Positions 9,512-61,200 of a DNA stretch of 64,000 nucleotides are shown here, piece by piece. Numbering within the stretch: the stretch's first letter is position 1; every line of letters begins with the position of its first letter. A program made the translations under genes and the position numbers. The DNA lies in the NCBI GenBank assembly GCA_036273515.1, contig DASUHM010000049.1:963-64962 (forward strand), given 5' to 3'. The notes beneath the pieces were generated by a model that worked only from the letters and a program-made list of their open reading frames with translations, was not told where the DNA came from and made no database searches. This DNA comes from Gaiellales bacterium (lineage in GTDB: Bacteria > Actinomycetota > Thermoleophilia > Gaiellales > JAICJC01).

Positions 9512-9608
9512 CCGGGTGCTCCTTTCGGCAGATCCTGCCACCGAAAGAGTAGGCGACGAGGGCGGCGGCGGGGAGGCGTGATCCCCACCGCCGCCGTCGC
9601 CGGGCCGG

Positions 9609-10411: not shown

Positions 10412-10525
10412 GTGGCGTCTCCTTCGAATGTCGGTTGCCAGTGGACTGGACTCACCGTAGGAGAGGCCGGGTTAGGCCCGGGCTATGGCACGGAACGGGA
10501 TGGTTAAGCGGTTGGTAACGGCGAA

Positions 10526-10909
10526 CTAACTGTCGCCGCCGCCGTCGTCACTGCCGTGGCCGCCTCCGCCGGAGGTGCTTCCGGAGCCGCCGCTCGAGCC
10601 GCTGCCGGAGCTGCCCGATCCGCCCGGAGATCGCCCGCTGGTGGAGCCGCCGCGGTCGTCCGTCCCGAAGGTCGTCACCACGCCCGTGGAGCCACCGGAA
10701 TCGCGGTGCCTCCGGTGGTGGTGCTCGGTCTCGCTCGTCGTCGGCGGCACGGTGGTGATCGGCTGGACGTTCGGCCCGAACTGCGGGGTGACGCCGCCGG
10801 GCGTGTCGCCGATCGCCTGGTCGGAGGCGTAGAAGACGGCCACGGCCATGCCCGCCGGGAGAGCGATCGCGGCGAAGACGAGGAGGACGGTGGTGGCTCG
10901 CGCGCGCAT
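10526..10909 (-). CDS. Membrane-anchored His/Gly/Ser-rich low-complexity protein
   Basis: Start taken at the internal ATG (MRARATTVLLVFAAIALPAG, a TM/signal segment). HHHRRH block, GS-rich tail ending HGSDDGGGDS. Lies directly downstream of the histidine kinase. Confidence 0.5.
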   Translation of the reverse strand: MRARATTVLLVFAAIALPAGMAVAVFYASDQAIGDTPGGVTPQFGPNVQPITTVPPTTSETEHHHRRHRDSGGSTGVVTTFGTDDRGGSTSGRSPGGSGSSGSGSSGGSGSTSGGGGHGSDDGGGDS

Positions 10910-10955
10910 GACCCCAGGATAGGTAGGGGCCCGGAAGCGGCGGGTTCGGGGGAGG

Positions 10956-12344: not shown

Positions 12345-13084
12345 CCGGCGAGCTCCGCGGGGGAGGCGAACCGGAAGCCGACGCCGCGCACGGTGTGGAT
12401 GTAGCGGGGCTCGTGGGCGTCATCGCCGAGCCGGCGGCGCAGGCCGGCAATGTGCACGTCGAGCGTCTTCGTCGACCCGAACCAGTCGACGCCCCACACG
12501 TCGTCCATCAGCTTGTTGCGCGCGAGCACGGTGCCGGCGTGGGCCATCAGCATGTGCAGCAGGTCGAACTCGCGCCGGGGCAGGTCGAGGGTCGAGCCGG
12601 CGTGGGTGGCGACATGGGTGGCCGGGTCGATCGAGACGTCGCCGATCTCGATTGCGGTGGGGGTGGCGGCGGCGGCCGGCGCGGCGCGCTCTCCGGTGCG
12701 GCGCAGCACGGCGCGGATGCGGGCGATCAGCTCGGCCATGCTGAACGGCTTGACGAGGTAGTCGTCGGCGCCGAGCTCGAGGCCGACGACGCGGTCGGTC
12801 TCGAGGCCGCGGGCTGTGAGCATGATGATCGGCACGTCCGAGGTCTGGCGGATCGCCCGGCATACGTCGCGGCCGTCGAGATCGGGCAGGTTCAGGTCGA
12901 GCAGGACGATGTCGGGCTCGCCCCGCCGCACCGACTCGAGCCCGCCGTTCCCGGTCGGCTCGACCGAGACGGCGTAGCCCTCGCGCTCGAGCGCCGAGCG
13001 GAGCGGATCCGAGATGGACGCCTCGTCCTCGATGACCGTCACATGGCCGCGAGTCGCCGCCGGTCGCTGCCCGCCTGCCTCCAT
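12341..13084 (-). CDS. OmpR/PhoB-family response regulator
   Basis: Receiver domain (IVLLDLNLPDLDG, ADDYLVKPF) plus winged-helix output (TVRGVGFRF). 4-nt overlap with the kinase. Start at ATG 13084. Confidence 0.9.
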   Translation of the reverse strand: MEAGGQRPAATRGHVTVIEDEASISDPLRSALEREGYAVSVEPTGNGGLESVRRGEPDIVLLDLNLPDLDGRDVCRAIRQTSDVPIIMLTARGLETDRVVGLELGADDYLVKPFSMAELIARIRAVLRRTGERAAPAAAATPTAIEIGDVSIDPATHVATHAGSTLDLPRREFDLLHMLMAHAGTVLARNKLMDDVWGVDWFGSTKTLDVHIAGLRRRLGDDAHEPRYIHTVRGVGFRFASPAELAG

Positions 13085-13133
13085 GCGGGCGAAGTCTAGG
13101 TGGGGCGTTCCGGAAGCGCTGTGGCCGCGGAAA

Positions 13134-13200
13134 CCGGGGTCTGACCCCGAACGGAACTGCAACGGAAGCGTCACGGCCGCCGTTCGGGGTCTGACCCCGG
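13134..13200. repeat. Inverted repeat: two 21-nt arms built on GGGGTCTGACCCCGAACGG, 25-nt spacer
   Basis: Arm 13134-13154 is CCGGGGTCTGACCCCGAACGG. Arm 13180-13200 is CCGTTCGGGGTCTGACCCCGG. They are complementary except at the central base. The same core recurs at 46282 and 58204. Confidence 0.8.
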
Positions 13201-13523
13201 TATGCAGTCAGCGGCGCCGAATACCGCGCTGGCATAACGATCCATGACCAAGAACTTCCGAGAGCAGCGTGACCGGTATCTGTCGACACTGCGAAGCCAT
13301 GTCGCTGCGCTGGATGGCGAGCTCGAGGTCGTCGCGGGTGTTCGGCGACGACGAGATTCGGATCCGCCTGGGCGAGCTCGAACCCGAACCCGAGCCCGCC
13401 TGACACCCAAACGCGGGAGATACCCGGGCCGATCAGGGCGATGCCGGTAGCGAGCGATCGCCGGTCCGGGGGAGTTCGTACCGCCGACGGAATTACCGCA
13501 ACCTGACGATTCGACTCACGGAA

Positions 13524-13576
13524 ATGCAACAGTTGCCGTTGCATATCTTCACGTTGGCGATCTCGTCGTATACGTT
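13524..13576 (+). promoter_or_regulatory. Candidate operator (ATGCAAC-N7-GTTGCAT) plus candidate promoter TTCACG-17-TACGTT upstream of the Tad-linked TCS
   Basis: Perfect 7-bp inverted repeat at 13524-13544. -35-like hexamer at 13548-13553 and -10-like TANNNT at 13571-13576, in an AT-richer stretch about 110 nt before the regulator's start codon. Confidence 0.3.
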
Positions 13577-13686
13577 GAGAGCGCATCTCCGAGGCGGCCC
13601 GGAGAGCACGACATCGCAATCGGTGCCACGCCGCCCGTACGTCCCCATCCGGCGTGGCCCACGACCCCGAAAGAGGCCCGCTTCAG

Positions 13687-14394
13687 ATGGCAGGATCCAC
13701 CGTGCTCGTCGTCGACGATGAACCCCGCATCGTCGAGTTCCTCACCGAGAACCTCCGCGACGACGACTTCACCGTTCTCACCGCCGCGACCGGCGCAGAG
13801 GCGATCGAGCTTCTCGGTCGCGCCCGTCCCGACCTCGTGCTTCTCGACGTCGTGCTCCCCGACATGAGCGGCTACGAGATCTGCCGCACCGTGCGTGCCG
13901 GCGACGGGATCAACGACCCCTGGGATCCCGATCTCCCGATCATCATGCTGAGCGCGAAGGCCGAGCATGTCGACCGCGTCCGCGGCCTGGTGCGCGGGGC
14001 GGATGACTACGTCACGAAGCCTTTCCACTATCCGGAGCTGCTCGCTCGGATCGGCGCGATTCTCGCGCGGGTGTCCCGCTCGCGCGACCGTGAGGTCATC
14101 CGCCACGGCGACCTGTCCGTGAACACGCTCTCGCGCGAGGTCACGGTCGGCGGCATCAAGGTCGACCTCTCGGCCAAGGAGTACCAGCTCCTGACGACGC
14201 TCGCCTCCGAGCCCGGCCGGGTCTTCACGAAGGCCGAGCTGCTCGAGTCGGTGTGGGGGTTCCGGTCGCAGGGACGCACGCGCACGCTCGACTCGCACGC
14301 GAGCCGGCTGCGCCAGAAGCTCCGCGTCCACTCGGGCTCCGGCTGGCTCGCCAACGAGTGGGGCGTCGGCTACCGCCTGTGCAGGCCGGAGTGA
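13687..14394 (+). CDS. OmpR/PhoB-family response regulator (first gene of the Tad operon)
   Basis: Receiver domain (VLVVDDEPRI, LVLLDVVLPDMSG, ADDYVTKPF) and winged helix (LSAKEYQLL...GVGYRL). Confidence 0.9.
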   Translation: MAGSTVLVVDDEPRIVEFLTENLRDDDFTVLTAATGAEAIELLGRARPDLVLLDVVLPDMSGYEICRTVRAGDGINDPWDPDLPIIMLSAKAEHVDRVRGLVRGADDYVTKPFHYPELLARIGAILARVSRSRDREVIRHGDLSVNTLSREVTVGGIKVDLSAKEYQLLTTLASEPGRVFTKAELLESVWGFRSQGRTRTLDSHASRLRQKLRVHSGSGWLANEWGVGYRLCRPE

Positions 14395-15161
14395 TCCGCG
14401 TCCCGCTGCGCCGGCGCCGGACAGGCGTCGACGGCCGTCTCCACGCCTCGGTCGAGGAGCTCGCGACCCTGCTCGCCCGCGAGGAGCGGGCCCGTGCCGA
14501 GTTCATCGGCAAGGTCTCGCACGAGCTGCGCACGCCGCTCACGGTGATCAAGGGCTACGTCTATACGCTCCACCGATCGGAGCACGACCCGGGCAAGGCC
14601 GCCAAGCTCGACGTCATCGACGGCGAGTGCGAGCGGCTCGGCTATCTGATCGAAGACCTGCTCGAGCTCTCGCGCGCACGCGCGGGCGAGCTGCGCGTGA
14701 ACGACGAGGTCTTCCCGCTCGAGCCGTGCGTGAGCGAGGTCGCCGAGCGGCTCCAGACCGTCGCCGAGCAGGGTGGCGTGCGCGTGCGGCTGGACTGGAC
14801 GTGCAACGGCGGGCTCGTGCGCGGCGACCAGAACCGCGTCCGCCAGATCTTCGCCAACCTGATCACGAACGGCATCAAATACGCCCCGCCGGGCACGGAC
14901 GTAACCGTTCGGGGCCGCCGCGTCGAAGACGGGCTCGAGGTGGCGGTGGAGGACGCGGGCCGCGGCATCGCCGAGGCCGATCTGCCGTTCATCTTCGACG
15001 AGTTCTTCCAGGCGCGGCGGCCGGAGCCCGGTGCCGGGCTCGGCCTCGCCGTCGCCCGGGAGCTCACCGAGGCCCACGGCGGCTCGATCGCCGTGACCAG
15101 CGCCGTCGGGAGCGGCTCGCGCTTCGTCGTGACCCTTCCCTGTCTGGGCGATCACGCATGA
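14391..15161 (+). CDS. Cytoplasmic histidine kinase with no sensor or TM region (HisKA + HATPase_c only)
   Basis: GTG at 14391 overlaps the regulator's TGA. H-box VSHELRTPL begins about 45 aa from the start. N box NLITNGIKY, G box GAGLGLAVA. Confidence 0.85.
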   Translation: MIRVPLRRRRTGVDGRLHASVEELATLLAREERARAEFIGKVSHELRTPLTVIKGYVYTLHRSEHDPGKAAKLDVIDGECERLGYLIEDLLELSRARAGELRVNDEVFPLEPCVSEVAERLQTVAEQGGVRVRLDWTCNGGLVRGDQNRVRQIFANLITNGIKYAPPGTDVTVRGRRVEDGLEVAVEDAGRGIAEADLPFIFDEFFQARRPEPGAGLGLAVARELTEAHGGSIAVTSAVGSGSRFVVTLPCLGDHA

Positions 15162-15871
15162 CCGCGGATCCCGCCGGGATCCTGCGGCTGCTCGAGCCCC
15201 CCGCAGGGCCCGAGCCGGCGGCCGCCCGGCCGCTCCGGCTCATCTCGGCCCTCTCGGCCCATGGACGGGTCGCGAGGGCCGAGGGGCTCGCCGGCGCCGG
15301 CGCCGGCCACGAGCTACGCCTGCCCGGGATCGGCGGTCGCTACCTGGCCGGTCTCGCGACGCATGCGCACGAGCAGGGGTGGCACACGTCCGAGGTGGCG
15401 GCCCTGCTCGATGCCGTCGAGGACCGATCCTCGATGTGGATCGTGAGCCCGTCCGCCGCCTCGCTGTGCCGCGCCGGCCTGGCCGAGACGGGCGGAAGCC
15501 GGAAGGCGTGCGCGCGCTGGTCGGCCGGTCGCTGGATGCAGGTGCCGGTGGATCCGGATTCCCTCACGCGCGTGGCGGCCGCCGGGCGGGCCCGTGCGGT
15601 CTGCATCGCCGCGGTGTCGGGCACCGGCGCTCCGCGCAAGCTGGTCGCCGCCGTGGGTGCCGAGGGCGTCGAGCTGGGATGGCTCGACGGCGGCCTCGCG
15701 ACATCGCTCCGTGTGGCGTGGACGGTGGAGCTGCTCGTCGCGCCCGCCGTCCCGGCCGGGTCGCTGATGGCGCTCCGCGAGCGGATCGCCGCGGCGCCGC
15801 GCTGCAGCTGGTGCGGCGTCCCGACGCTGGGCACGGACTGCCCCCGCTGCTTGCCGGGAGCGCGGGCGTGA
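15158..15871 (+). CDS. Hypothetical protein with C-terminal CxxC...CxxC zinc ribbon
   Basis: ATGA overlap with the kinase. 237 aa ending CSWCGVPTLGTDCPRC. No other recognised domain. Confidence 0.6.
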   Translation: MTADPAGILRLLEPPAGPEPAAARPLRLISALSAHGRVARAEGLAGAGAGHELRLPGIGGRYLAGLATHAHEQGWHTSEVAALLDAVEDRSSMWIVSPSAASLCRAGLAETGGSRKACARWSAGRWMQVPVDPDSLTRVAAAGRARAVCIAAVSGTGAPRKLVAAVGAEGVELGWLDGGLATSLRVAWTVELLVAPAVPAGSLMALRERIAAAPRCSWCGVPTLGTDCPRCLPGARA

Positions 15872-16464
15872 GCCGTCACCGCCGTCGCAGTCTCGTCCTC
15901 GCGCTTGTGGGCGTCGTGCTTGCGGTGCTCGGGCTCTCCCGGCTCGGCGCCGGCGCAGACGGACGCGGGCCGACGGGCCGGCGCGTCATTCGCGTCGTCG
16001 CCCTCCGGCCGGTTGCACAGGGCGCCCGGATCGCGGCGGCGGATCTCGGCACCGTGCGGCTTCCGGCGGCGTGGGCGTCGCCGCACCAGCTGGCCGATCC
16101 AGCCGACGCGGTCGGCCGGCGCGCCGCCGTCGCGCTCGTCGCCGGCGCGCCGGTGATGGACGCGGAGGTGTCGGCATCGACGGCGCCCGAAGACGCGCGC
16201 GAGCTGGCACTCCGGCTCGACGAGGCCGCCGGAGTCCCGGCGGGAGATCTCGCGGACGTTCGCGGCGACGTCTACCTCACGACTCCCGGGCGGCGAGGCC
16301 GCACGCGGCTCGTGCTCGCGAACGTGCTCGTGGTGTCGGCGCGGCGCGACGACTCCGGCTCGGTCGCCACGCTCCTCTTGCCGCCAGCGGCCGTGCCGCA
16401 TGCGATCGCGGCGGAGGGCGAGGGCTCCCTGCGGCTGGTGGTGCGCGGAGACGGGGCCGAATGA
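15868..16464 (+). CDS. cpaB: Flp pilus assembly protein CpaB/RcpC
   Basis: GTGA overlap. N-terminal TM anchor, then SAF-like and RcpC-like regions. Position immediately before tadZ. Confidence 0.65.
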   Translation: MSRHRRRSLVLALVGVVLAVLGLSRLGAGADGRGPTGRRVIRVVALRPVAQGARIAAADLGTVRLPAAWASPHQLADPADAVGRRAAVALVAGAPVMDAEVSASTAPEDARELALRLDEAAGVPAGDLADVRGDVYLTTPGRRGRTRLVLANVLVVSARRDDSGSVATLLLPPAAVPHAIAAEGEGSLRLVVRGDGAE

Positions 16465-17540
16465 TCGCGCCGGTCGTCCGCTGCCTCGTCGTCGCCTCCG
16501 ACCCGCTTCTCGGAGCCGAGATGACGGCGCTCGCGGACGACCTGCCCGGCGTCCAGCTCGTCGGCGTGATCGCGCCGCTTCGCGCCGTCGCCGGTCGGCT
16601 GCCACCGTGCGACGTTGCCCTCCTCGCCGACCCGGGCGAGCGCGGTGCGCCTGCCCTGCGCCAGCTCGTCGCCGGGTGCGGCCGGCCCGCCGTCGTGCTG
16701 GCCCGGTCGGCCGGCGTCGACACCTACCGGCGCGCGCTCGCCGCCGGCGCCCGCGCCGTGCTGCCGCTCCCCGCCGTACCTGGGGCCCTCGGCGACGCGC
16801 TCGTCGAAGCGGCGGTCACGCCCGGTCGACCGCCGTCTCCGCCGAGCGGGCGCGTCACGGCGATCCTCGGCGCCAAGGGCGGCACGGGCGCAACCTCGAT
16901 CGCGCTCGCGCTCGCCCGTCTCTCCGGCGCGGCGCTCGTGGACATGTCCGGATCCTGGTCCGGCCTCGGCTCGCTGCTGGGCTGCCAGACCGAGCGCTCG
17001 CTGGCCGATCTCGCCCACGTCGGCGACGGGCTTGCCGCCGCGGTGGCAAGCGCCGCCGTCCAGCACCCGTGCGGGCTGCGGCTGGTGCCCGGCCCGGCCG
17101 GTCCCGAGATCGCCGCGGCGCTTCCCGGCGGGTTCGCCGCCGCGCTCGTGCGCGACCTGCGCGCCGGCGGCCCGGCGGTCGTCGACGCGGGCTGCGGCGC
17201 GTTCACGGCCTCCCGCGAAGCCGCCGTCGCCGCCGATCGCGCGCTCGTCGTCGTGACGCCGGACGCGCCGGCCGCGGTGGGCGGGCGCGAGCTCGTGACG
17301 ACGCTCGCCCGGGCCGGCGCCGCGGACGGCATCCGGGTGGTCGTGAACCGCTGGAGCCGCCGCTCCGAGCTCTCGCTGCGCGGCATCGCCCGGACGGTCG
17401 GCGTCCCCGTCGGCGCGGTCGTCCGCGCCGATGCCGAGTCGCTGGACGCCCTCGCGGACGGCCGCGCCCGGCTCGAGCGGTGGCCCGGCCGCAGGCACGC
17501 CGTGGCGCTGCGCGAGCTGGCCGCGGAGGTGTCGGCGTGA
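16461..17540 (+). CDS. tadZ: TadZ/CpaE ParA/MinD-like pilus localisation ATPase
   Basis: ATGA overlap. N-terminal receiver-like domain, then a deviant Walker A GAKGGTGATSIALALA. Confidence 0.75.
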   Translation: MIAPVVRCLVVASDPLLGAEMTALADDLPGVQLVGVIAPLRAVAGRLPPCDVALLADPGERGAPALRQLVAGCGRPAVVLARSAGVDTYRRALAAGARAVLPLPAVPGALGDALVEAAVTPGRPPSPPSGRVTAILGAKGGTGATSIALALARLSGAALVDMSGSWSGLGSLLGCQTERSLADLAHVGDGLAAAVASAAVQHPCGLRLVPGPAGPEIAAALPGGFAAALVRDLRAGGPAVVDAGCGAFTASREAAVAADRALVVVTPDAPAAVGGRELVTTLARAGAADGIRVVVNRWSRRSELSLRGIARTVGVPVGAVVRADAESLDALADGRARLERWPGRRHAVALRELAAEVSA

Positions 17541-18694
17541 CCGATGCGATCGCCGGCCTCGCGGAGGGCTACCGGGAGCGGCTCCGGCGCGAGCTGCTCG
17601 ACCGGCCGCCGGGCGGCGACCTGCGCGTCGCCGCCGAGCGGGTGGCGTGGGAGCTGCTCCACGGCGATCGCGTCGCGCTCGACCCGGCGGACGCCCGCCG
17701 GCTCGTGGCCGGGATCGTCGACGACACGGTCGGCCTCGGGCCGCTCGACCCGCTGCTGCGCGACCGCGGCGTGACCGAGGTGATCGCGAACGGCCCGGGC
17801 CGGGTCTATGCCGAGCGGTCGGGCCGGCTCGTGCGTGAGTCGGTCGCGTTTCGCGACGAGGAGCACCTGCGCCAGGTGATCGATCGCGTCGTCAGCTCCG
17901 TCGGCCGGCGCGTCGACGAGTCCAGTCCGATGGTCGATGCCCGCCTTCCGGACGGGAGCCGGGTGAACGCGGTGCTTCCCCCGATCGCCCTCGACGGCCC
18001 GCTGCTCACGATTCGGAAGTTCGCGCGGGCGCCGTTCCGGGTCGACGACCTGGTCGCGGCGGGCAGCCTCACCCCCGGGCAGGCGGATCTGCTCGAGCGC
18101 TGCGTCCGCGGGCGGCTGAACGTCGTCGTCTCGGGCGGCACCGGGACCGGGAAGACGACGCTCCTGAACGCGCTCGCTGGCTTCATCGACCCGGCCGAGC
18201 GGATCGTCACCGTCGAGGACGCCGCCGAGCTGCGGCTGCCGCAGCCCCACGTCGCCCGGCTCGAGAGCCGGCCGCCGAACGTCGAGGGCCGCGGCGAGGT
18301 GACGCTCCGCGCCCTCGTGCGCAACGCGCTTCGGATGCGCCCGGATCGGATCGTCGTCGGCGAGGTGCGCGGCGGCGAGGCGCTCGACATGCTCCAGGCG
18401 ATGAACACCGGGCACGACGGCTCGCTCACCACCGTCCATGCGAGCTCGCCGGGCGACGCCGTGCGCCGGATCGAGACGATGGCGCTCATGGCCGGGCTCG
18501 ACCTCCCGCACGTCGCCGTGCGCGAGCAGGTTGTCTCGGCGGTGGACGTGATCGTCCACCTGGTCCGCGACGGCGACGGCTCGCGGCGGGTGCGGTTCGT
18601 CGACGCCCGCGGCCGCGACGGCCAGCTGCACATGCTGGACCCGCGGCTCCTGAGCGAGCTCGAGGAGCGCCGATGCGCCTACGGCGGTCCCTGA
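17537..18694 (+). CDS. tadA: TadA/CpaF secretion ATPase
   Basis: GTGA overlap. Walker A GGTGTGKTT, Asp box, Walker B RIVVGEVRGGEA, His box TGHDGSLTTVHA. Confidence 0.9.
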   Translation: MTDAIAGLAEGYRERLRRELLDRPPGGDLRVAAERVAWELLHGDRVALDPADARRLVAGIVDDTVGLGPLDPLLRDRGVTEVIANGPGRVYAERSGRLVRESVAFRDEEHLRQVIDRVVSSVGRRVDESSPMVDARLPDGSRVNAVLPPIALDGPLLTIRKFARAPFRVDDLVAAGSLTPGQADLLERCVRGRLNVVVSGGTGTGKTTLLNALAGFIDPAERIVTVEDAAELRLPQPHVARLESRPPNVEGRGEVTLRALVRNALRMRPDRIVVGEVRGGEALDMLQAMNTGHDGSLTTVHASSPGDAVRRIETMALMAGLDLPHVAVREQVVSAVDVIVHLVRDGDGSRRVRFVDARGRDGQLHMLDPRLLSELEERRCAYGGP

Positions 18695-19227
18695 GCGCGC
18701 AGGCGCAGGCGGCTCAGCTGGCGCTGGTCGTCGAGATCCTCGCGGCCCACGTTCGCGCCGGCCGGTCGCTCTCGCAGGCGCTCGTGGATGCGGTCGAGGA
18801 TGCGCCCGAGCCGATCGACGCGCGTGTCGGGGCCGCCGCAGCGGCCGCGGCGTTGGGAACGCCGGTCGCCGATGCACTCGGAATGCTCGGCGACAGCCCC
18901 GACGTGGCATACCTCGCCGCCGCGGTGCGCCTGCAGATACGCGCGGGCGGCGATCTCGCGCTCCTGCTCGAACGCACCGCCGAGCTCCTGCACGAGCGCC
19001 GCGCCCAGCGCCGGGCGGCCGAGGTGGCGACTGCACAGGCCCGGGCGACCGGCCGGATCGTCAGCGGGATGCCGGGCCTCGGGGTGGCGGCGCTCTACCT
19101 GGCCGATCGGCCCGGGTTCGACCTGCTCGTGCGCGCGCCGCTCGGATGGGTGGCCCTGGCGATGTCGGCCGGCCTGGCAGCGCTCGGCCACGTGTTGATC
19201 CGGCGGCTGTCCGAGGTCGACCCGTGA
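18673..19227 (+). CDS. tadB: TadB-like type II secretion system F-domain protein
   Basis: T2SSF-type region with a C-terminal TM pair. Follows tadA with a 22-nt overlap. Confidence 0.65.
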   Translation: MRLRRSLSAQAQAAQLALVVEILAAHVRAGRSLSQALVDAVEDAPEPIDARVGAAAAAAALGTPVADALGMLGDSPDVAYLAAAVRLQIRAGGDLALLLERTAELLHERRAQRRAAEVATAQARATGRIVSGMPGLGVAALYLADRPGFDLLVRAPLGWVALAMSAGLAALGHVLIRRLSEVDP

Positions 19228-20021
19228 TCGCCTGGCTACTGCTCCTCGCGGCGGCCTTCACGCTGTCCGAAGCTCGTCGCGCCGCCGTCCGCGACCGCCG
19301 CCTGAACCCGCCTGAACGGGCTCGCGGCGGAAGCCCGTCGGTGCGTCTGCTCGAGGCGGCCGGGCGCGCGCCGGCGGCGCTGCTCGCGACGCGTGGGGTG
19401 GATGTGCCGCCGTTCCGGGCCGGCGCGGTGGCGGTCGCGGGCGGACTCGCCGTCCTCGCGCTCACGGCCATCGGCGGAGTGACCGGGATCCTGGCGGCGC
19501 TCGCGGTGGCCGGCTTCGGCGCCGCCTATCCGGCGTTGTGGATGCGCGCCGCTGCGGCCCGCCGCGCGGAGCGGATCGAGCGGCGGGTTCCGGAGCTCGT
19601 CGAGCTGGTCGCGAGCGCCGTCGCCGCGGGCGTCGGCCTGGACGCGTCCCTGCGCGGGGCGGGGGAGGCGGTCGGCGGTGAGCTGGGCGCCGAGCTCGAC
19701 CTCGCGTACGCCAACATCGGCCTCGGCCGGCCGCGCGCGGACGAGCTGCGCGACCTGGCCGCCCGGACGGGGTCGCCGTCGCTGGCGCGGCTGGCGCTCA
19801 CGCTGCGGCTGAGCGACCGCCTCGGCGTCCCGTTGGCGGAGTCTCTGCGCCGCCAGGCCGATCGCGCGAGGACGCAGCGCGCCCGCGCGGTCCAGGAGCG
19901 GGCGGCGAAGGCCGGGCCGCGGGTGCTCGTCGTCGTGGTGTTCGTGCTCGTGCCGGCGGCGCTCCTCCCGCTCGTGGCCGCCGTGCTCCTGACTGTCGCG
20001 GGCTCGTTGTCGGGTTTCTGA
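19224..20021 (+). CDS. tadC: TadC-like type II secretion system F-domain protein
   Basis: GTGA overlap. N-terminal TM helices, T2SSF-type central region, C-terminal TM pair. Confidence 0.65.
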   Translation: MIAWLLLLAAAFTLSEARRAAVRDRRLNPPERARGGSPSVRLLEAAGRAPAALLATRGVDVPPFRAGAVAVAGGLAVLALTAIGGVTGILAALAVAGFGAAYPALWMRAAAARRAERIERRVPELVELVASAVAAGVGLDASLRGAGEAVGGELGAELDLAYANIGLGRPRADELRDLAARTGSPSLARLALTLRLSDRLGVPLAESLRRQADRARTQRARAVQERAAKAGPRVLVVVVFVLVPAALLPLVAAVLLTVAGSLSGF

Positions 20022-43147: not shown

Positions 43148-44037
43148 GCGCCGTTCCCGCCTGCGTCGAGCCGGACTACCCGGTGTCGCGGCTGACCACG
43201 GTCGGCACGGGCGGCCGGGCGCGCTTTCTTGCCCGGCCCGGCACCGGCGCCGAGCTGGCCGGGGTGCTGAGCTGGGCCGATGCGGGCGCGCTCGACGTGG
43301 CCGTGGTCGGGCTCGGCTCGAACCTGCTGGTCGCCGACGAGGGCTACGACGGCGTCGTCCTGCGCCTGGCCGGCGGCCTCGCCCGGATCGAGCGCGACGG
43401 CGAGCGGGTCGTGTGCGGCGGCGGCGCCTCGCTGGCCGCCGTCGTGAAGCGGGCGACCGGCTGGGGCCTCTCCGGCATCGAGTTCGGATGCGCCATCCCG
43501 GGCACGGCCGGCGGCGCGGTGCGGATGAACGCGGGCGCGTACGGCGGCGAGCTGCGTGACGTGCTCGACAGGGCGGTGGTGGTCGGCGCCGGCGGCGAGC
43601 GGGCCGGCGGGCCGGACGAGCTCGGCATGCGCTACCGGCACTCGAACGTCGGGCCGCGCGAGGTCGTCGCCGAGGCGGTGCTGCGGCTGCGGCCCGACGA
43701 CACGGAGCGGATCCGGGCGACCGTGGCCGACATGCAGCGGCGCCGGCGCGAGGCCCAGCCGGCCAAGGTGCGCACGTTCGGGTCGGTGTGGAAGAACCCG
43801 GGCGGCGACCTGTCCGCCGGGCGCATCCTCGAGGAGTGCGGGCTCAAGGGCTTCACGGCCGGCGGCGCCCGCATCTCGCCGGTGCACGCGAACTTCATCG
43901 AGAACACGGGCGATGCTCGCTCCGCCGACGTGATCGCGCTGATGCAGGAGGCGCGGCGGCGGGCCCGCGAGCGCTTCGGCGTGGAGCTCGAGCACGAGGT
44001 GCAGATGCTCGGGCCGATCGGGCTTTCAGATGGTTGA
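43144..44037 (+). CDS. murB: UDP-N-acetylenolpyruvoylglucosamine reductase
   Basis: ATGA overlap. FAD-binding GLGSNLLV. C-terminal MurB domain (GSVWKNP, ISPVHANF). The last codons and stop lie inside the repeat at 44028. Confidence 0.9.
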   Translation: MSAVPACVEPDYPVSRLTTVGTGGRARFLARPGTGAELAGVLSWADAGALDVAVVGLGSNLLVADEGYDGVVLRLAGGLARIERDGERVVCGGGASLAAVVKRATGWGLSGIEFGCAIPGTAGGAVRMNAGAYGGELRDVLDRAVVVGAGGERAGGPDELGMRYRHSNVGPREVVAEAVLRLRPDDTERIRATVADMQRRRREAQPAKVRTFGSVWKNPGGDLSAGRILEECGLKGFTAGGARISPVHANFIENTGDARSADVIALMQEARRRARERFGVELEHEVQMLGPIGLSDG

Positions 44038-44132
44038 TCGGCAGCTCCCGTGACAGCCGCAGCCCACGAGCGCCCCGAACGCCCGCCAACAGCCTGACGT
44101 CCGGGCGCGCGCGAGCTGCCGATCAACCATCT
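44028..44132 (-). mobile_element. 105-bp MITE-like element (truncated family member) between murB and ftsQ
   Basis: Perfect 20-bp terminal inverted repeats, AGATGGTTGATCGGCAGCTC (44028-44047) and its complement (44113-44132). The interior matches elements at 56915 and 51550 in reverse orientation, including an exact 17-mer at 44086-44102 = revcomp of 56944-56960. Confidence 0.6.
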
Positions 44133-50104: not shown

Positions 50105-51558
50105 AGCTCATCTACGAGAAGTCGCGCGCGGGCCGGCGGGCGGGCCGCATCCCCGATCCGGGCGTCCAGGTCGCCGAGGTGCCGGCGGAGCTGGCGCGCA
50201 CCACCCCGCCGCGGTTGCCGGAGCTGGCCGAGCCTGAGCTCGTGCGCCACTACACCGAGCTCTCGACGCGGACGTTCGGGATCGACACGGGCTTCTACCC
50301 GCTCGGCTCCTGCACGATGAAGTACAACCCGCGCATCAACGAGCGTGCGGTCGGCCTGCCCGGCTTCGCCGACCTGCACCCCCACCAGGAGGACGAGGGC
50401 GCCCAGGGCGCGCTCGAGCTGATGTGGCGGCTGCAGGAGATGCTGGCCGAGGTGGTCGGCCTCGATGCGGTCACGCTCCAGCCGGCAGCCGGGTCGCAGG
50501 GCGAGCTGACCGGCCTCACGCTCATGCGGGCCCACTTCGCGGACCGCGGCGAGGACCGCACGGAGGTGATCATCCCCGACACCGCCCACGGCACCAACCC
50601 GGCCAGCGTCGCGATGGCGGGCTACACGCTCGTGCGCGTGAAGACCGACGTGCGCGGCAACGTCGACGTCGACGACCTGCGCGGCAAGGTGGGGGAGCAC
50701 ACGGCGGGGCTCATGCTGACCAACCCGTCGACGCTCGGCCTGTTCGAGGAGCGGATCTCCGAGATCGCCGACATCTTCCACTCGGCCGGCGCGCTCCTCT
50801 ACTACGACGGCGCCAACCTGAACGCCGTGTGCGGCATCTCCCGGCCGGGCGACATGGGCTTCGACATCGTCCACTACAACCTGCACAAGACGTTCTCGCA
50901 GCCGCACGGCGGCGGCGGGCCGGGCGGCGGGCCGGTGGCAGTGCGGCGCGACCTCGAGCAGTTCCTGCCGGTGCCGGTGGTCGTCCGCGACGGCGACACT
51001 TTCCGGCTCGAGAGCGACCGGCCGAAGACGATCGGCAAGGTGCGCGGGTTCGGCGGGCCGTTCGGCGTCTTCGTGCGCGCCTACGCGTTCATGCGCATGT
51101 GGGGGCCGGGCCTGCGCGACATGTCCGAGGTGGCCGTCCTGAACGCGAACTACGTGCTGGCGCGGCTGAAGGGCGCATACGACCTGCCCGTCGACCGCCA
51201 CTGCATGCACGAGTTCGTCGTCTCGGCCCGCACCCTCAAACGCGAGCACGGGATCACGGCGCTCGACGTCGCCAAGCGGCTGATGGACCACGGGTTCCAC
51301 CCGCCCACGATCTACTTCCCCCTGATCGTGTCCGAGGCGCTCATGATCGAGCCGACCGAGACGGAGACGCGCGAGACGCTCGACGCGTTCTGCGAGGCGA
51401 TGCTCGCGATCGCGCAGGAGGCCGGCGACGATCCGCAGATGCTGAAGGACGCGCCGCACACGCGGCCGGTGACCCGGCTCGACGAGGCCGAGGCGGCCAA
51501 GCGCCTGCTCGTACGCTACGGGTTCGACGAGCACCCGACGTCCGGGCTAGATGAATGA
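50101..51558 (+). CDS. gcvPB: Glycine dehydrogenase (decarboxylating) subunit 2
   Basis: ATGA overlap. [11 protein letters not shown], and the PLP-lysine context [16 protein letters not shown]. The last codons and stop lie inside the repeat at 51550. Confidence 0.9.
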
Positions 51559-51748
51559 TCCCACACCTCTGCGCACCTGGGCGCCCGGCTGTGAGGGGTG
51601 TTCGGCGTGCTGGTGGGGCTGCGGCTGCGAACCGTCGCATCGCTGTGTCCTCGGTCGCGCCCATACAACCAGGTATGAGCGCTCCCTGCGTCCTCGCGCT
51701 GCCCGGTTCGCAGCCGCCCAGGACACACCGGGCGTGGAATCAGTCATC
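51550..51748 (+). mobile_element. 199-bp MITE-like element filling the gcvPB-HAD intergenic gap
   Basis: Terminal inverted repeats GATGAATGATCCCAC (51550-51564) and GTGGAATCAGTCATC (51734-51748), 13 of 15 complementary. Flanked by TA on both sides. Collinear similarity to 56915-57112. Confidence 0.6.
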
Positions 51749-51751
51749 TAG

Positions 51752-54999: not shown

Positions 55000-55477
55000 G
55001 TGGACGTGACCTGGACGTCGCGGAACGGTCTGCACTGTGACCTGGAGAGCGTGTCCAGGACAGGCGCCGAGGCCAACCTGTACAGCTACGCCGCGGCTAT
55101 CAGCGCCGACGGCCGCTACGTGGTGTTCAACTCCGGCGCCACCAACCTGGTGCCCCACGACACCAACCCGCGCACCGACGCGTTCGTGCGCGACCGCCGC
55201 GCCGGGTGACGACTCGCATCAGCGTCTCCACGACCGGGGCCCAGGCGCAGGCGCGGTCGCCAGGCCAACGCGGAATGCAGCGCACCTCCGGCTGACCCGC
55301 CACGGCCGCGACGTCGTCTTCTCCTCGCCCGCCTCGACGCTGGTCTCCGGCGATACCAACGGCCAGACACCAGTCTTCTCCTCGTGGGCCGGCAACCTGG
55401 TGTCGAACGACCGCAGCCCGGGCCCGGAGGTGTTCGTGCGCGATCGGACCTGCCCTGAGGGATTCACTCTAGACTGA
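55000..55477 (+). pseudogene. Decayed PD40/TolB-like beta-propeller repeat gene remnant
   Basis: Repeat units ISADGRYVVFNSGATNLVPHDTNPRTDAFVRDR, TTRISVSTTGAQAQA, and GRDVVFSSPASTLVSGDTNGQ...VFVRDR occur in three different frames with stops between them. No signal peptide or credible start. Confidence 0.55.
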
Positions 55478-55483
55478 CCGGCC

Positions 55484-56923
55484 GTGTCGTCCCGTCCCGT
55501 CTGCGTCCGCATGCCGCCCAGCCCGACCGGGCTCTTCCACGTCGGCACGGTGCGCACGATGCTCTTCAACTGGCTCTTCGCCCGCGGCCGCGGCGGCAGG
55601 GTCGTGCTGCGGTTCGAGGACACGGACGTCGCCCGCTCCACCGAGGCCGCCGTCGAGCACGCCGAGGCGGTGCTGCGCTGGCTCGGGATCGACTGGGACG
55701 ACGGGCCCTACCGGCAGACGCAGCGCTACGACCTCTACCGGGCCGCCGCCGAGGACCTGATCGCGCACGGCAAGGCCTACCGCTGCTACTGCACCGAGGC
55801 CGAGCTGGCCGAGGAGCGAGCCCGCCGCCAGGCCGACGGCCGGCCGCTGATCTACAGCGGCCGCTGCCGGCACGCAGCGGCGGCCGAGCTCGAGGCGCTC
55901 GCCGCGGAGGGCCGGCCCGCGGTCGTGCGCCTGGCCCTGCCGGCGTCCGGCACCACCGTCATCGAGGACGTCGTCCACGGCACGGTCGAGTGGGACAACG
56001 CCCTCCAGGGCGACCACGTGATCCTGCGGTCGGACGGGTCGCCGACCTATCAGTTCGCGAACCCGTTCGACGACATCGCCATGGGCGTGACCTACGTGAT
56101 CCGCGGCGAGGACCTGATGCCGTCGACGCCGCGCCAGCTGGCGCTCTACCGCGCGCTCGACGCCCCGGAGCCGGTCTTCGCCCACCTGCCCATGGTGCTC
56201 GGGCCGGACAAGCGCAAGCTCTCGAAGCGGCACGGCGCGATCTCGGTCGAGGAATTCCGCGACGCGGGCGTGATCGCGGATGCGCTCGTGAACTACCTGG
56301 CGCTCGTCGGCTGGAGCTTCGACGACCACACGAACTTCATGACGCGGCCCGAGCTGATCGAGCGGTTCACGCTCGAGCGGGTGACCAAGAGCCCGGGCGT
56401 GTTCGACCCGGAGAAGCTCGAGTGGCTGAACGGCGAGCACCTGCGCGCGCTTGCGCCCGAGACGTTCGTGAAGGAGCTCCAGGACTACCTCGTCTCCGCG
56501 GCCTCGCCGCTGGCCGACCAGCCGGAGCAGGTTGCCGAGGCGGCGCCGCTCGTGCAGGAGAAGATGCGCGTGCTGGGCCAGTTCCCGCGCCTCGCCGGGT
56601 TCCTGTTCGGCCCGCCGGAGCGCGATCCGGCCGCCTGGGAGCGGGTGGGCAAGGACGAGCGCGCGCCGGCGTCCCTGCGGGCCGCCCGCGAGGCGCTCGC
56701 CGAGGTCGATCCGTGGACGGCCGAGGCGATCGAAGCGGCCCTGCACGCCGCCTGCGAGCGGCAGGGCGTGAAGCCGCGCGCGCTCTTCATGCCGGTGCGG
56801 GTCGCGCTCACCGGGAGCACCGTCTCGCCGGGGCTGTACGAGAGCCTGGAGCTGGTGGGCCGGGACGAATCGCTCGCCCGGCTCGACGCTGCGCTCGCCG
56901 ATCTCCCCGCCGTCGATGATTGA
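55484..56923 (+). CDS. gltX: Glutamate--tRNA ligase
   Basis: Class I motifs: a HIGH-type PSPTGLFHVG and a KMSKS-type KLSKRHG. The last codons and stop lie in the repeat at 56915. Confidence 0.9.
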   Translation: MSSRPVCVRMPPSPTGLFHVGTVRTMLFNWLFARGRGGRVVLRFEDTDVARSTEAAVEHAEAVLRWLGIDWDDGPYRQTQRYDLYRAAAEDLIAHGKAYRCYCTEAELAEERARRQADGRPLIYSGRCRHAAAAELEALAAEGRPAVVRLALPASGTTVIEDVVHGTVEWDNALQGDHVILRSDGSPTYQFANPFDDIAMGVTYVIRGEDLMPSTPRQLALYRALDAPEPVFAHLPMVLGPDKRKLSKRHGAISVEEFRDAGVIADALVNYLALVGWSFDDHTNFMTRPELIERFTLERVTKSPGVFDPEKLEWLNGEHLRALAPETFVKELQDYLVSAASPLADQPEQVAEAAPLVQEKMRVLGQFPRLAGFLFGPPERDPAAWERVGKDERAPASLRAAREALAEVDPWTAEAIEAALHAACERQGVKPRALFMPVRVALTGSTVSPGLYESLELVGRDESLARLDAALADLPAVDD

Positions 56924-57112
56924 TTCCACCTCCCCGCGAGCCTGGACGTCAGGCTGTTGGTGCGGGTTCGGACTGTTGGTTGGGGCTGCGCCTCAGCGTC
57001 TGCGTCATCGCAGACGCCTCGGACCGCGGTCAAGCGCATCCACGCTCCCTGCGTCCTTGCGCTGCTCGGTTCGCAACCGCCGAGACCGCACAGGGTCGTG
57101 GAATCGATCATC
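56915..57112 (+). mobile_element. 198-bp MITE-like element downstream of gltX
   Basis: Terminal inverted repeats GATGATTGATTCCAC (56915-56929) and GTGGAATCGATCATC (57098-57112). Internal 9-bp-stem hairpin at 56996-57017. Collinear with 51550-51748. Confidence 0.6.
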
Positions 57113-57164
57113 CAGTGAGTTTGCAGGAATCCGGCCGGGCCCGGCCGAAGGGGGAAGTCCGCCC

Positions 57165-57485
57165 GTGTACGGATCCCTGCATGTCTCCGAGTCGATCACG
57201 CGCCTCTCGGTCGCGGGCGTCGTCCTGTGGGTGAGCCTCACGGCCCTCGTCGCGACGGTCGTCGGCGTCGCCGCGTGGTCGGCCGGGAACGCCACCGCGA
57301 CGCGCTACACGCCTGCCGTCGTGCGCCAGATCCAGGGCCAGGCCTACGTCCGCGGGCTGGCCGCCGGGAGCGAGCGGACGAGCCATGCCGGGAACGGCCG
57401 CAAGCGGATCGACACGCTGCGCAGGAAGAGCTACGAGCGAGGATATTCGGCCGGCTACCGGGCCGGACAGGCGGCCGCACCCTGA
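57165..57485 (+). CDS. Hypothetical membrane-anchored protein
   Basis: GTG at 57165 preceded by GAAGGGGGAAG. One TM helix (LSVAGVVLWVSLTALVATVVGVAAW). Confidence 0.45.
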   Translation: MYGSLHVSESITRLSVAGVVLWVSLTALVATVVGVAAWSAGNATATRYTPAVVRQIQGQAYVRGLAAGSERTSHAGNGRKRIDTLRRKSYERGYSAGYRAGQAAAP

Positions 57486-57578
57486 CGCACTACCCGTTCG
57501 GGTGGGTTCGGGCCCGAAGCGAGGGGTGTTTCCCCCGACCCCGGGACTGGGGGCGCACGCGGAGGTAGAGTTGCGGAC

Positions 57579-57917
57579 GTGGGGGTCTACCTGCTGCAGC
57601 ATCTGGCCCAGTGGGCCGCAGCCACGGCGTTCCTCGCGACGCTGGGGTGTGTCATCGCCGCCGCGCTCGGCATCCAGATGTCTGCGTCGGCCCTGATGCC
57701 CGGCGACGCCGCCTTCGCGCTCGCGCGCACGATGGCGATCCTGGGCGGCTCCGCGGTGATCGTGGCGGGCTTCTCGAGCACCCTCTACTTCTGGCTGATC
57801 GGGGTCGCATCCGACCGCGCGGCGCTCACGGTCGGCGCCGGCACGCTGGCGGTCGGCCTCGTGTTCGTCGGCATGATCGGCATGCTGAACGAGCGCGGCC
57901 ACGCCGCCCACCGCTGA
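57579..57917 (+). CDS. Hypothetical polytopic membrane protein
   Basis: 112 aa with 3-4 hydrophobic helices. Confidence 0.45.
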   Translation: MGVYLLQHLAQWAAATAFLATLGCVIAAALGIQMSASALMPGDAAFALARTMAILGGSAVIVAGFSSTLYFWLIGVASDRAALTVGAGTLAVGLVFVGMIGMLNERGHAAHR

Positions 57918-57948
57918 TCCGGCAACCCCTCCCGGTACGCTTCCCGTC

Positions 57949-58194
57949 ATGCGCGAACGGCTGCGCAGCCGGGCGGTCCTGATCGCCGCGATCGCCGCGG
58001 TGGCGCTGGCCGTGCTCGGCACCTACACCTGGAACCAGACCGCGCCGACGCGCTGCCCGAAGGTGGGCGTGTGCCTGGAGGGCCAGACCCACAAGGTGCA
58101 CCCGCTGCGCGCCCGGATCGAGTGGGCGGCGGCCGTCGTGATGGTGGTGGGCGCCGCCAGCCTGGCGGTCACGGGCCGGCGCCGGCGGGAATAA
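57949..58194 (+). CDS. Hypothetical two-TM small protein
   Basis: 81 aa. TM helices at both ends around a C-x5-C loop (CPKVGVC). Confidence 0.4.
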   Translation: MRERLRSRAVLIAAIAAVALAVLGTYTWNQTAPTRCPKVGVCLEGQTHKVHPLRARIEWAAAVVMVVGAASLAVTGRRRRE

Positions 58195-58203
58195 CCGACA
58201 ATC

Positions 58204-58216
58204 GGGGTCAGACCCC
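58204..58216. repeat. GGGGTCAGACCCC palindromic motif copy (extends to CGGGGTCAGACCCCGAACGGG, 58203-58223)
   Basis: Same 19-20 nt as the arms at 13134 and 13180. Lies in a convergent intergenic gap. Followed by GTTGC-N5-GTTGC. Confidence 0.7.
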
Positions 58217-58256
58217 GAACGGGGGCTGTTGCACTCCTGTTGCGAAGTTGTGACGC

Positions 58257-61200
58257 CTACGCGGCCAGGCGCATGTCGGCGGCCGCCCAGGCCGCGAGCG
58301 CGGCGGCGTCGGCCGCGAGCACCGGCCGTCCGGCCGCCCGGGCGAGCCGCTCGTGGCCCGCGCAGCCGTCGTGCAGGGGCACGTAACCGTCGACGCCGGC
58401 GTGCAGACGCGGGCCGTCGGCGCCGGCCAGCGAGTGGGTGAGGATGACGATGTCGGCGCACTCGTCCAGGCTGACCCCGGCGTCGGCGGCCGCGTCGAGG
58501 ACGCGCTGGGTGCAGGCTTCCTCGCGGGGCGCGCTGCGCGGATCGGCGAGCAGGAAGAGGCACGCCCCCGTGCCGGGGCGCACCCCGCCGACCCAGGCGG
58601 CGAGCAGCTCGCCGAGGCGGTCGTCCCCGCGCCAGGCGGGCGTCGCCAGCAGGCGGATGCGGGCCGGGTCGAGCTCGAGCGGCGCCGGCTCCGGAAGGGC
58701 ATGCAGCGGCGGGCGGGCGGCCAGCGCGGCGATCCGCTCGCGGTAACTCTCGGCCACGACGGCCCATGAAAGCTTCTCCGCCGCCTCGCGGCCGGCGAGA
58801 CCGCGCGTCCCCCGACCGTCCGCGTCGGCGACGGCCGCGAGCAGCAGCTCGCGCAGGTGCCCGGGATCGGGCTCGAGCATCCACGGCCGGCCGGCGGTGA
58901 CCCACTTGCCGGCCCGGTCCTCGTCGTACTCGCGCCGCTCGGCCCGGATCCGCCAGCAGGCCTCGTCGGGGCAGAACTCGTCGGTGGGGCCGCCCGCGGT
59001 CACCACGACCGGCAGGCCGCACGCCATCGCCTCGAGCACGGGCATCCCGAAGCCCTCGCCGCGGTAGGGGTGCACGAGGACGTCGCAGGCGCGGTAGAGC
59101 GACGCCACCTCCTCGGTCGTCATGTCGCGGTGCAGGTAGACGATGCGCGGGCTCTGGCCGGACTCGGCGTAGTCGCGCAGGCGGCTGCGGTCGGACATCG
59201 GGTAGATGCCGTCCGCGCCGAAGTCCTTGACGATCAGGGTGACGTCGTCGCGGCCGGCGAAGACCTCGAGGAAGGCGGAGATGAGCAGGTCGGGGCCCTT
59301 GCGGTCGATCAGGCCGCCCACGAAGAGGATCCGCAACCCCGGCGCGTCGAGCTCCATGCGCGGGCCTTCGGGCGCGAACATCTCCAGGTCGACGCCGTTC
59401 GGGACGACGGCGACGCGGCCGGCCTCCACGCCGGAGGCGACGTACACGTCGCGGACGTGGGCGCTCGGCACCCACAGCTCGTCGACGTTCGCGTTGATGC
59501 CCTCGACCCACTCGACCGGGGCCGCGCCGAACTCCCACGGCTGGATCACCGCGAGCCGCCCCGACGCCGCCGGTCGCAGGTCGGGCGGGAACTGGTGCCG
59601 CACCTCGACCTGGGCCGGCAGCGGCAGCGCCGGGCCGCCGCCCTGGCCGGTGCGGGAGACGCGCTCGAGCGCAATCCCGTCGGCGGCCCCGAGCAGCTCG
59701 CACACGCTGCGGTTGACGCCGGCGAGGCTCTGGGTCGAGCCGTGGTCGCCCTGCCAGCGGACGCTGACCGGCGCGACGCCCGTGTGGTCGCGGCGCGGCC
59801 GCTCGCCGCGGTAGTAGGCCTCGAGCTCGTCGACGTGGGCGGCGAACGACCGCGGCGCGGCGATGTTCGCCTGGAGCCGCTCGAGCAGGCCCGGCTCGCT
59901 CGCCAGGCGGTCGAGCTGGCGGGCCAGGTCGGCGCCGTCGCGGCCGTCGAAGAGCAGGCCGTTCTCGCCGTCGGCGACGAAGTCGGGGATGCCGCCCATG
60001 CGGGCGGCCAGCACCGGCACGCGGCCGGCCAGGCACTCCGAGACCATCAGCGGCGCGCAGTCCCACCAGACCGACGGGATGACGGCGACATCGACAGAGG
60101 CGAGCAGCTCGGGCAGGTCGCCATGGCCGAACGTGCCGCAGATCTCGACCACGCCGCGGGCGTCGCGGGCCCGCAGGTCGGCGGCGAACCGCTCGGGCAC
60201 CTCGCCGTGGATGCGCACCCGAATGTTCGCCTCGGTGCGCTGGGCGGCGTCGATCAGGAGGCTCGGCCCCTTCTGCGGCAGCGCCGAGCCGAAGAAGCCG
60301 ACGACGAGCTCCTCGCCGATCCGGCCGGGAACGCGGTCACGGCCGAGCGCCGCCCAGATCGCCTCGTCCTCCGGCATCGCCTGCGGCACGACGTCGATCG
60401 CGTCGGCCGGGAACCCGGCGCCGGCGAGCGTGGCCCGCATCGCCTCGGACACCGCCAGGCACACGTCGATGCCGCGGCTGAAGCGGCCGCGGATCTCGCT
60501 CAGGCGGCGGCGGTAGGCGTCGGCGTCGAGGCTGCCGACGCAGGCGGCGCAGTCGCCGCCGCGGTCGCCGGGGCCGTGGCAGAGGTCGAGCGTGTCGGTG
60601 AACAGGTAGCCGCGCGGACAGGCCAGCCAGTAGTTGTGGGTCGTGAACAGCGACCGGATGCCGCGCACGGCGGCCTCGTCGATCAGCGCGGCGCCGAGGT
60701 TGTGCAAGTTGTGGAAGTGCACGGCGTCGGGGCGGACGCGGTCGAGCAGGTCGGCGAACGCGCGCGTGATCGGCGGGTCGTCGACCTCGCGGTCGGGATG
60801 GCCGAGGTCCATGAGGCCGTGGGGGCGGTTGAAGACGCCCACGAGGCGGACGCCGTCCTGCCACCACTCGCGCACCTGGTAGGGCTCTGCGGGCTCGATC
60901 CGGCCGACGGCGGCGTGGAACACGGTGACGTCGTAGCCGCGCCGGGCGAGCTCCTGCGACACCTGCCGGGGGACGATCGTGCCGCCGCCGGAGTCGTCGT
61001 AGCCGAAGGAGGTCATGACGATCCGGGGCCGAGCGGCCAGGCCGCGCTCGCGCAGGCGGGCGGCGAGCTCGGGCAGGGGCAGCGCGCGCCGCTCGAGCGC
61101 GTCGGCCAGGAGCACGAGCGCGCCCTGCTCGGTGGCCGCCTCGGGCGCCAGCACGCGCCAGTCCTCGCGCTCGATCGCGGCCTCGAGCGCGCGGGAGACC

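Follow-up and report, generated by a model that had tools for sequence, protein, structure and literature searches.

A probable miniature inverted-repeat transposable element with IS982-type ends at the 3' end of gltX in a Gaiellales bacterium

The 198-bp element at the end of gltX

The window analyzed here is a 64,000-nucleotide stretch of DNA from a Gaiellales bacterium (contig DASUHM010000049.1) with a GC content of 73%, and the subject of this report is a 198-bp element located in it at the 3' end of gltX, the gene for glutamate--tRNA ligase. The gltX gene (55511–56923, forward strand) encodes, by translation, a protein of 470 aa with the Pfam domains tRNA-synt_1c and Anticodon_2. An exact look-up of the GltX sequence read from GTG 55484 returned no record, because the real start codon is the ATG at 55511. 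The element occupies 56915–57112 on the same strand. An earlier note on this DNA had placed it directly downstream of gltX; it does lie at the end of the gene, but the left terminal inverted repeat (TIR) of the element contains and supplies the final Asp-Asp codons of gltX together with its TGA stop codon (56915–56923), and the Val codon before them was formed at the junction. GltX homologues have 467 aa and end in ...DLPA or ...DLAG; the window protein ends in ...DLPAVDD, which was found among the GltX homologues only in one 99%-identical protein (P0001).

The left TIR, GATGATTGATTCCAC (56915–56929), and the right TIR, GTGGAATCGATCATC (57098–57112), both read from the forward strand, were complementary at 14 of 15 positions, in agreement with the terminal repeats that had been reported for this copy. 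The earlier note had regarded it as a second full-length copy, in the same orientation, of a 199-bp repeat at 51550–51748 (forward strand). Comparison of the two by blastn gave 70.9% identity over 203 columns (E = 1.8e-18), and a MAFFT alignment was also made. The global alignment score was 82, compared with -7.5 ± 6.0 for 1000 dinucleotide shuffles (z = 15), and the interiors with the TIRs removed gave z = 11.4. The identity of the two copies is far above chance, and the reading as a second full-length copy survived the shuffled control that had been set for it. The block order, described as the same, was common to the two copies in the TIRs, the left module, and the 3' part of the right module, but the central ~50 nt were non-homologous. 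Alignment with longer relatives indicated a modular interior consisting of a module A, an optional module B of two hairpins, and a module C. The 51550 copy is an A+C form, and the gltX copy belongs to the long (~262 bp) subfamily as a deletion variant, the A+B+C form minus 21 nt and ~46 nt, in which only hairpin 1 of module B is kept.

Two of the three copies in the window are at other genes. The 51550 copy, with gcvPB upstream and a HAD hydrolase gene downstream, sits on the TAG stop codon of gcvPB, which abuts the GTG start codon of the hydrolase gene. GcvPB homologues end in ...HPTSG, and the window GcvPB, which showed 97% identity with a protein from a Gaiellales metagenome-assembled genome (MAG), ends in ...HPTSGLDE, being extended by Leu-Asp-Glu at the insertion. 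The third copy (44029–44131, reverse strand) is a 103-bp short form with a perfect 20-bp TIR, AGATGGTTGATCGGCAGCTC, located about 5 codons before the stop of murB, and the murB of the window ends on a TGA (44035–44037) within this TIR. Its setting, at the end of murB and before ftsQ, was assigned by synteny with L230, a related contig of 927 kb. The inner part of its TIR differs from that of the two long copies, and a left-hand core is common to all three.

A blind search for empty sites, in which the joined flanks of 62 copies were searched in all retrieved loci, yielded self-artefacts only, and empty sites were obtained instead through GltX and GcvPB homologues. Comparison with the gltX loci of relatives, a check named in the earlier note, located the element in the window and in L227 (GltX 99% identical), where the same element carries 4 substitutions, and no element in L226 (GltX 97% identical), L228 (GltX 92% identical), or L230; L226 and L228 read ...GCC TGA CGAGTTTGCAGG. 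The 51550 site is empty in L229 and L230, and the murB site is empty in L230. In L230, synteny with the window was seen over a 21-kb stretch that starts at murC and extends past gltX, and all three sites in it are empty. Since the element is absent from the orthologous sites of close relatives, the copies are insertions and the gltX one is recent; the gltX insertion is shared only with the 99%-identical relative. Comparison with L227 did not show that the element decays faster than gltX (98.0 and 99.2% identity, respectively), with only 4 differences to count.

The 51550 site gave a direct view of the target duplication. The empty site of L229 (GcvPB 99% identical) reads TCCGGG-TAG-GTGCTG, with the gcvPB stop codon abutting the hydrolase start codon, and the filled site (window 51547–51751) reads TCCGGG-C-TA[199 bp]TA-GGTGCTG; in short, GGG-TA-GGTG when empty and GGGC-TA[...]TA-GGTG when filled. 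The empty sites are located at 3940–3955 of L229 and 11440–11460 of L230, and in L230 the gcvPB and hydrolase genes are 8 nt apart. At gltX, the left flanking dinucleotide (56913–56914) is TC, and in L227 it is TA (GTA in place of the GTC of the window), a difference that points to decay of a duplicated target TA. The right flanking dinucleotide (57113–57114) is CA, whereas the duplicated TA stands at this place in other copies. A copy in contig L021 with 62 nt of upstream similarity was considered as an orthologue of the 51550 copy and rejected, since tblastn with GcvPB and the HAD hydrolase found nothing in that contig.

A family of short elements and its IS982-family partner

A scan of genomes, one per species, with a degenerate pattern from the shared core returned 102 loci, 13 of which were true relatives, all in five MAGs of uncultured Actinomycetes/Actinomycetota; the remaining loci, most of the 102, were chance matches to the degenerate pattern. 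The copies in the MAGs were bounded by TA, usually as cTA-GATGATTGATTCCACGCC...GGCGTGGAATCAATCATC-TAg. A scan of metagenome contigs with the query TAGATGATTGATTCCACGCC returned at least 120 loci. When left and right ends were paired, the matches listed contained two size classes, ~30 short elements of 110–290 bp (mode ~200 bp) and 42 elements of 980–998 bp. The left TIR type GATGATTGATTCCAC was found, among the matches listed, on the 42 long and on 31 short copies. The 31 short elements formed a single similarity cluster that spans lengths of 103–292 bp and includes large internal indels, and their TIRs were complementary at 15–18 of the terminal 18 nt. Nearly all copies were flanked by TA, mostly within CTAG. 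The plasmid collection contained no DNA match to the gltX copy. Three single TIR-like 18-mers in viral contigs (44–52% GC, no partner end) were dismissed, being close to the chance number. Literature searches turned up nothing specific on this family, on IS982 elements with CTAG, or on Gaiella repeats.

The long elements each contain one open reading frame (ORF) of 288–298 aa between TIRs of 15–19 nt, and their mean pairwise identity is 77%. The ORF of a ~988-bp element scored 149.8 bits with the NCBIfam model NF033520 for IS982-family transposases (cutoff 130) and matched Pfam DDE_Tnp_1 (4e-17) and DDE_Tnp_1_3. The protein family of this transposase is very large in metagenomes, chiefly on ~1-kb contigs. 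Both ends of the short elements match the right end of this insertion sequence (IS; positions 968–988) over 18–21 nt, and the stretch common to the two is the terminal 16–21 nt only, the interiors being unrelated. These results indicated that the 198-bp segment is very probably a transposable element of the miniature inverted-repeat type (MITE), a non-autonomous DNA transposon that has no coding capacity of its own and carries the ends of an IS982-family IS. The earlier description as a dispersed repeat was right about a full-length copy with TIRs, but the MITE nature and the IS partner had been missed.

The nearest annotated relatives of the transposase (46–50% amino acid identity) are genes that bear the name 'IS982 family transposase' and are carried by plasmids of Streptomyces and Kitasatospora. 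In the Streptomyces antimycoticus plasmid NZ_CP108859, the corresponding element (L233, 56882–58378) has the ends cgccTA-GATGATCAATTCCAAGGGG...CCCCTTGGAATAGATCATC-TAggcg, and its TA flanks are within the 10-bp palindrome CGCCTAGGCG. As this Streptomyces relative has the same TA/CTAG pattern, TA duplication together with GA... ends seems to be characteristic of this clade of IS982 elements in actinobacteria.

Two side observations concern the IS. Contig L178 (2607–3141) contains a 535-bp internal-deletion derivative, in which positions 1–261 are joined to 727–988 with the ends intact, so that the lineage has non-autonomous elements of two types. In addition, the TIR GATGATTGATTCCAC resembles the IS coding DNA GCTGATCGACTCCAC for the first catalytic-Asp motif, LLIDSTP (IS consensus position ~411), with a chance p of ~0.02 by a rough estimate, and owing to this resemblance false TIR matches arose at L149 (position 4970) and L186 (position 984).

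Several points weigh against the assignment. The junction at gltX has no clean TA duplication: its left flank is GTC or GTA, its right flank is CA, and at the empty sites this spot lacks a TA. One extra base stands before the left TA in both long copies (C in the 51550 copy and G in the gltX copy). The IS982 family is listed in ISfinder with longer duplications and AC ends, and against this listing a 2-bp TA duplication is atypical for the IS982 name. No full-length IS was found within the 64-kb window. Co-residence of IS and MITE was not found either: in the two long IS-bearing contigs inspected, L231 and L232, which share their ENA accession series with the syntenic L230, there was no MITE within 10 kb of the IS. 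Finally, compensatory changes in some stems (12 of 63 consensus pairs; RNAalifold, 18 copies) are compatible with some selection on structure. In L231 (ENA ERZ25039533 contig_41664), the region 9400–19800 near the full-length IS contains, besides a split SBP_bac_5 gene, several short fragments of EamA-domain genes (99, 92, and 117 aa), which points to local disruption or to an abundance of repeats; neither a MITE nor a second IS end was found in it.

Transcript structure, coding capacity, and the downstream gene

The earlier note had proposed that a hairpin in the element could terminate gltX transcription. The hairpin is present exactly as claimed, with a perfect 9-bp stem and a 4-nt loop, GCGTCTGCG-tcat-CGCAGACGC (56996–57017, forward strand), and it is hairpin 1 of the optional module B. 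All three copies in the window fold far more strongly than shuffles (z = -7.1 for the gltX copy, and -3.2 and -8.4 for the others), and the predicted folding energy of the gltX copy is -112 kcal/mol. MITEs of other bacteria can terminate or stabilize transcripts, and some terminators without U-tracts have been reported from actinobacteria, so that a very strong fold placed exactly at the end of gltX might be a functional terminator or an mRNA-stabilizing 3' structure recruited or selected in place. However, the hairpin is followed by CTCGGACC with no T-run, none follows the outer stem, and a terminator and promoter scan of 55000–58500 returned 0 sites; the lack of a U-tract leaves a terminator role unsupported. 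In the relatives with 97 and 92% identical GltX, which lack the element, the next gene begins 48 nt after gltX with no such structure between, and the ancestral state therefore looks like read-through into that gene. Moreover, the same hairpin recurs as a module in MITE copies at eight other, unrelated loci and is missing from most family members. The copies also have no consistent orientation to the incoming gene (13 abut it with the A-side and 19 with the C-side). A terminator or stabilizer recruited or selected at gltX is, on this evidence, unlikely, and the proposal of the earlier note was not supported.

It is very improbable that the element is a gene for a structured non-coding RNA, or a cis-regulatory RNA, whose fold is under conservation. 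The strong fold and the compensatory changes mentioned above would agree with it, but the covariation term of RNAalifold was +0.53, which gives no net support, and much of the pairing is that of the TIRs, whose match is required by transposition. No Rfam match was obtained: with Rfam 15 nothing reached the gathering threshold across the window, and nothing at E <= 1 was found in 56800–57250. Presence/absence polymorphism between near-identical genomes, occurrence in both orientations, and internal indels that change the length from 103 to 292 bp also speak against an RNA gene.

Coding capacity was considered together with the gene downstream. This gene (57165–57485, forward strand, GTG start) encodes a protein of 106 aa with an N-terminal hydrophobic segment and no family assignment. 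The start at GTG 57165, favored in the earlier note, is the same GTG as in independent gene calls in L226 (1608–1928) and L230 (16193–16513), and an AAGGAGG-like Shine-Dalgarno sequence upstream corresponds to the strong ribosome-binding site that had been noted. The protein showed 91.5% identity over all 106 residues with the orthologues at empty sites, where the gene begins 48 nt after gltX. In L226 and L230 the frame upstream of the GTG is closed by the gltX TGA, and in L226 there is no start codon between. The 106-aa protein gave a weak, sub-threshold match to Pilin_N (E = 0.006), and its gene is the first of a conserved run of small genes after gltX encoding 106, 112, and 80 aa with no Pfam family (57165–58194; L230 16193–17217).

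The two ORFs that cross the element (56916–57485 and 56920–57234) exist as listed, and their dismissal as non-coding in the earlier note agreed with our results: they are absent where the element is absent, the lengths of the 31 MITE copies show no bias modulo 3 (14/10/7), and the frame of the ATG in the TIR is the richest in stops. That frame has 52 interior stops, compared with 33 and 30 in the other two, and is open in 24 of 62 strand-orientations, compared with 38 and 42. The 83-codon N-terminal extension of the downstream gene through the element is spurious. We give next to no credence to a small translated ORF that would bridge the flanking genes by translational coupling in the manner of the mycobacterial interspersed repetitive units (MIRUs), with TAG-ATG on the left and TAG on the right. 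The left end does read TAG-ATG, a 66-codon frame of the 51550 copy runs from the ATG to a TAG abutting the hydrolase start codon, and the TIR ATG of the gltX copy (56916) is in frame with the downstream gene; but the 83-residue extension is absent from all empty-site orthologues, and at the family level the coupling idea was rejected by the lengths modulo 3 and the stops in the ATG frame.

A MITE of the IS630/Tc1-mariner type, of which TA duplication at CTAG is the classic signature and which the TA within CTAG on most copies and the TA duplication at the 51550 site would fit, is extremely improbable, because the sole autonomous element found with these ends scores as IS982 (149.8 bits) with weak IS5 and IS4 matches and no IS630-type domain, the annotated Streptomyces relatives are named IS982 family, and no IS630-family transposase was found within GATGATTGATTCCAC ends in the 42 full-length elements among the matches listed.

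Insertion at stop codons and related systems

The ends of the MITE, which we regard as IS982-type, carry stop codons. In the relatives, TA precedes the left TIR, giving TAG-ATG plus TGA, and every frame is thereby closed. The left end as it usually occurs, cTAGaTGAtTGAt, has one stop per frame, and the right end likewise on the other strand. All three window copies make use of the TIR-internal TGA (gltX, GTC GAT GAT TGA; gcvPB, CTA GAT GAA TGA; murB, TCA GAT GGT TGA), and the two long copies stop there because one extra base precedes the left TA. We searched for incoming genes by six-frame GC content at third codon positions (GC3) in the 240 nt that flank each of the 31 MITE copies to the left and to the right (62 sides). 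An incoming gene was found on 37 of the 62 sides, and 24 of these 37 genes stop on a TAG formed by the duplicated TA and the first G of the element, with 5 stopping inside the TIR. The IS copies showed a like tendency, with 9 TAG cases. At seven loci, the MITE lies between two incoming genes that each end on a TA-derived TAG; these two-sided cases are insertions into a CTAG palindrome serving as the stop for two convergent genes.

In the window, CTAG was observed 15 times with 153 expected, that is, about 10 times more rarely than expected, with 2 of the 15 made by the 51550 copy, and TA dinucleotides were at 45% of expectation. Several CTAGs of the window are gene stops, e.g., at 9609, 24719, 28134, and 40822. 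As CTAG is rare and several of its occurrences are TAG stops, an element that prefers it tends to land on gene ends, and we infer that the CTAG preference is the cause of the stop-codon bias. Because TA and the first G rebuild TAG, and the TIR has TGA in the other frames, the interrupted gene loses nothing or gains at most 3 residues.

From these observations a mechanism can be proposed. The 16–21 nt ends of the MITE would be the recognition sites of the DDE transposase encoded by the ~988-bp IS982-family IS, which would act in trans to excise or copy the MITE. Insertion would take place at TA, preferably in the CTAG palindrome, with duplication of the TA, as was shown for the 51550 copy. On landing at a gene end, the TA and the first G would restore TAG, and the TIR would supply TGA in the other two frames. 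At gltX, the insertion added Val-Asp-Asp and increased the distance to the next gene by ~200 nt of transcript that folds strongly. The 9-bp hairpin inside the element arrived with it, and any effect of this hairpin on gltX transcription or mRNA stability would be an unproven side effect. The IS982-clade transposon and its MITEs may even be adapted to insertion on stop codons, including the stops of convergent pairs and stop-start junctions, a suggestion that we make tentatively. The extra base found repeatedly at the left junction shifts the stop to the TIR-internal TGA and leaves a 3-residue tail, as carried by all three window copies; it could represent a second, undescribed outcome of insertion or repair.

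The kind of element seen at gltX is known, the host lineage is new for it, and no new kind of system is revealed by it. In Cardinium, a MITE of ~240 bp related to ISCca4, of the IS982 family, is described as derived from its parent IS (PMC9769881). The two elements are alike in being short (~200 bp), non-coding, multicopy, provided with IS982-type inverted repeats, and presumably mobilized in trans. In contrast to the Cardinium MITE, the element here has an uncultured Gaiellales-like host (Actinomycetota, 73% GC) and has only the 16–21 nt ends in common with the IS, its interior being unrelated, and the family has TA/CTAG targeting and modular lengths of 103–292 bp. Actinobacterial IS982 elements with GATGAT...ATTCCA ends, such as L233, likewise read TA-GATGATCAATTCCA...TGGAATAGATCATC-TA inside CTAG; they are autonomous elements of ~1 kb with a single DDE ORF, whose transposase is 46–50% identical to that of the partner IS, whereas the window element has no transposase. 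IS630/Tc1-mariner elements and their MITEs have the TA duplication and the CTAG preference in common with the present family, but the partner transposase here is not of the IS630 type.

Resemblances to other bacterial repeats are more general. The Correia elements of Neisseria, ERIC, and RUP/BOX are also small, TIR-bounded intergenic repeats that are co-transcribed, form long hairpins, and possibly modify termination or stability, but their sequences and partner transposases are unrelated to the window element. RNA effects have been documented for these repeats. The MIRUs of Mycobacterium tuberculosis are, like the present family, actinobacterial intercistronic repeats whose ends overlap the flanking stop and start codons. 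They are tandem units of 40–100 bp with conserved small ORFs and no TIRs, whereas the present family is marked by TIRs, TA duplication, and a partner IS, and no ORF is conserved in it.

Elements of this kind mislead gene callers, producing false ORFs over the element, wrong 3' ends upstream, and wrong starts downstream. They also fragment metagenome assemblies, and many of the scanned contigs end in a TIR. Near-identical genomes differ in whether a site is filled or empty, and these alleles can serve as strain markers. In the window, GltX, GcvPB, and MurB each terminate inside a transposon end. Through the combination of its target (CTAG/TA) with its end sequence, this transposon is tolerated on the stop codons of the essential genes gltX, gcvPB, and murB in an uncultured lineage of soil actinobacteria.

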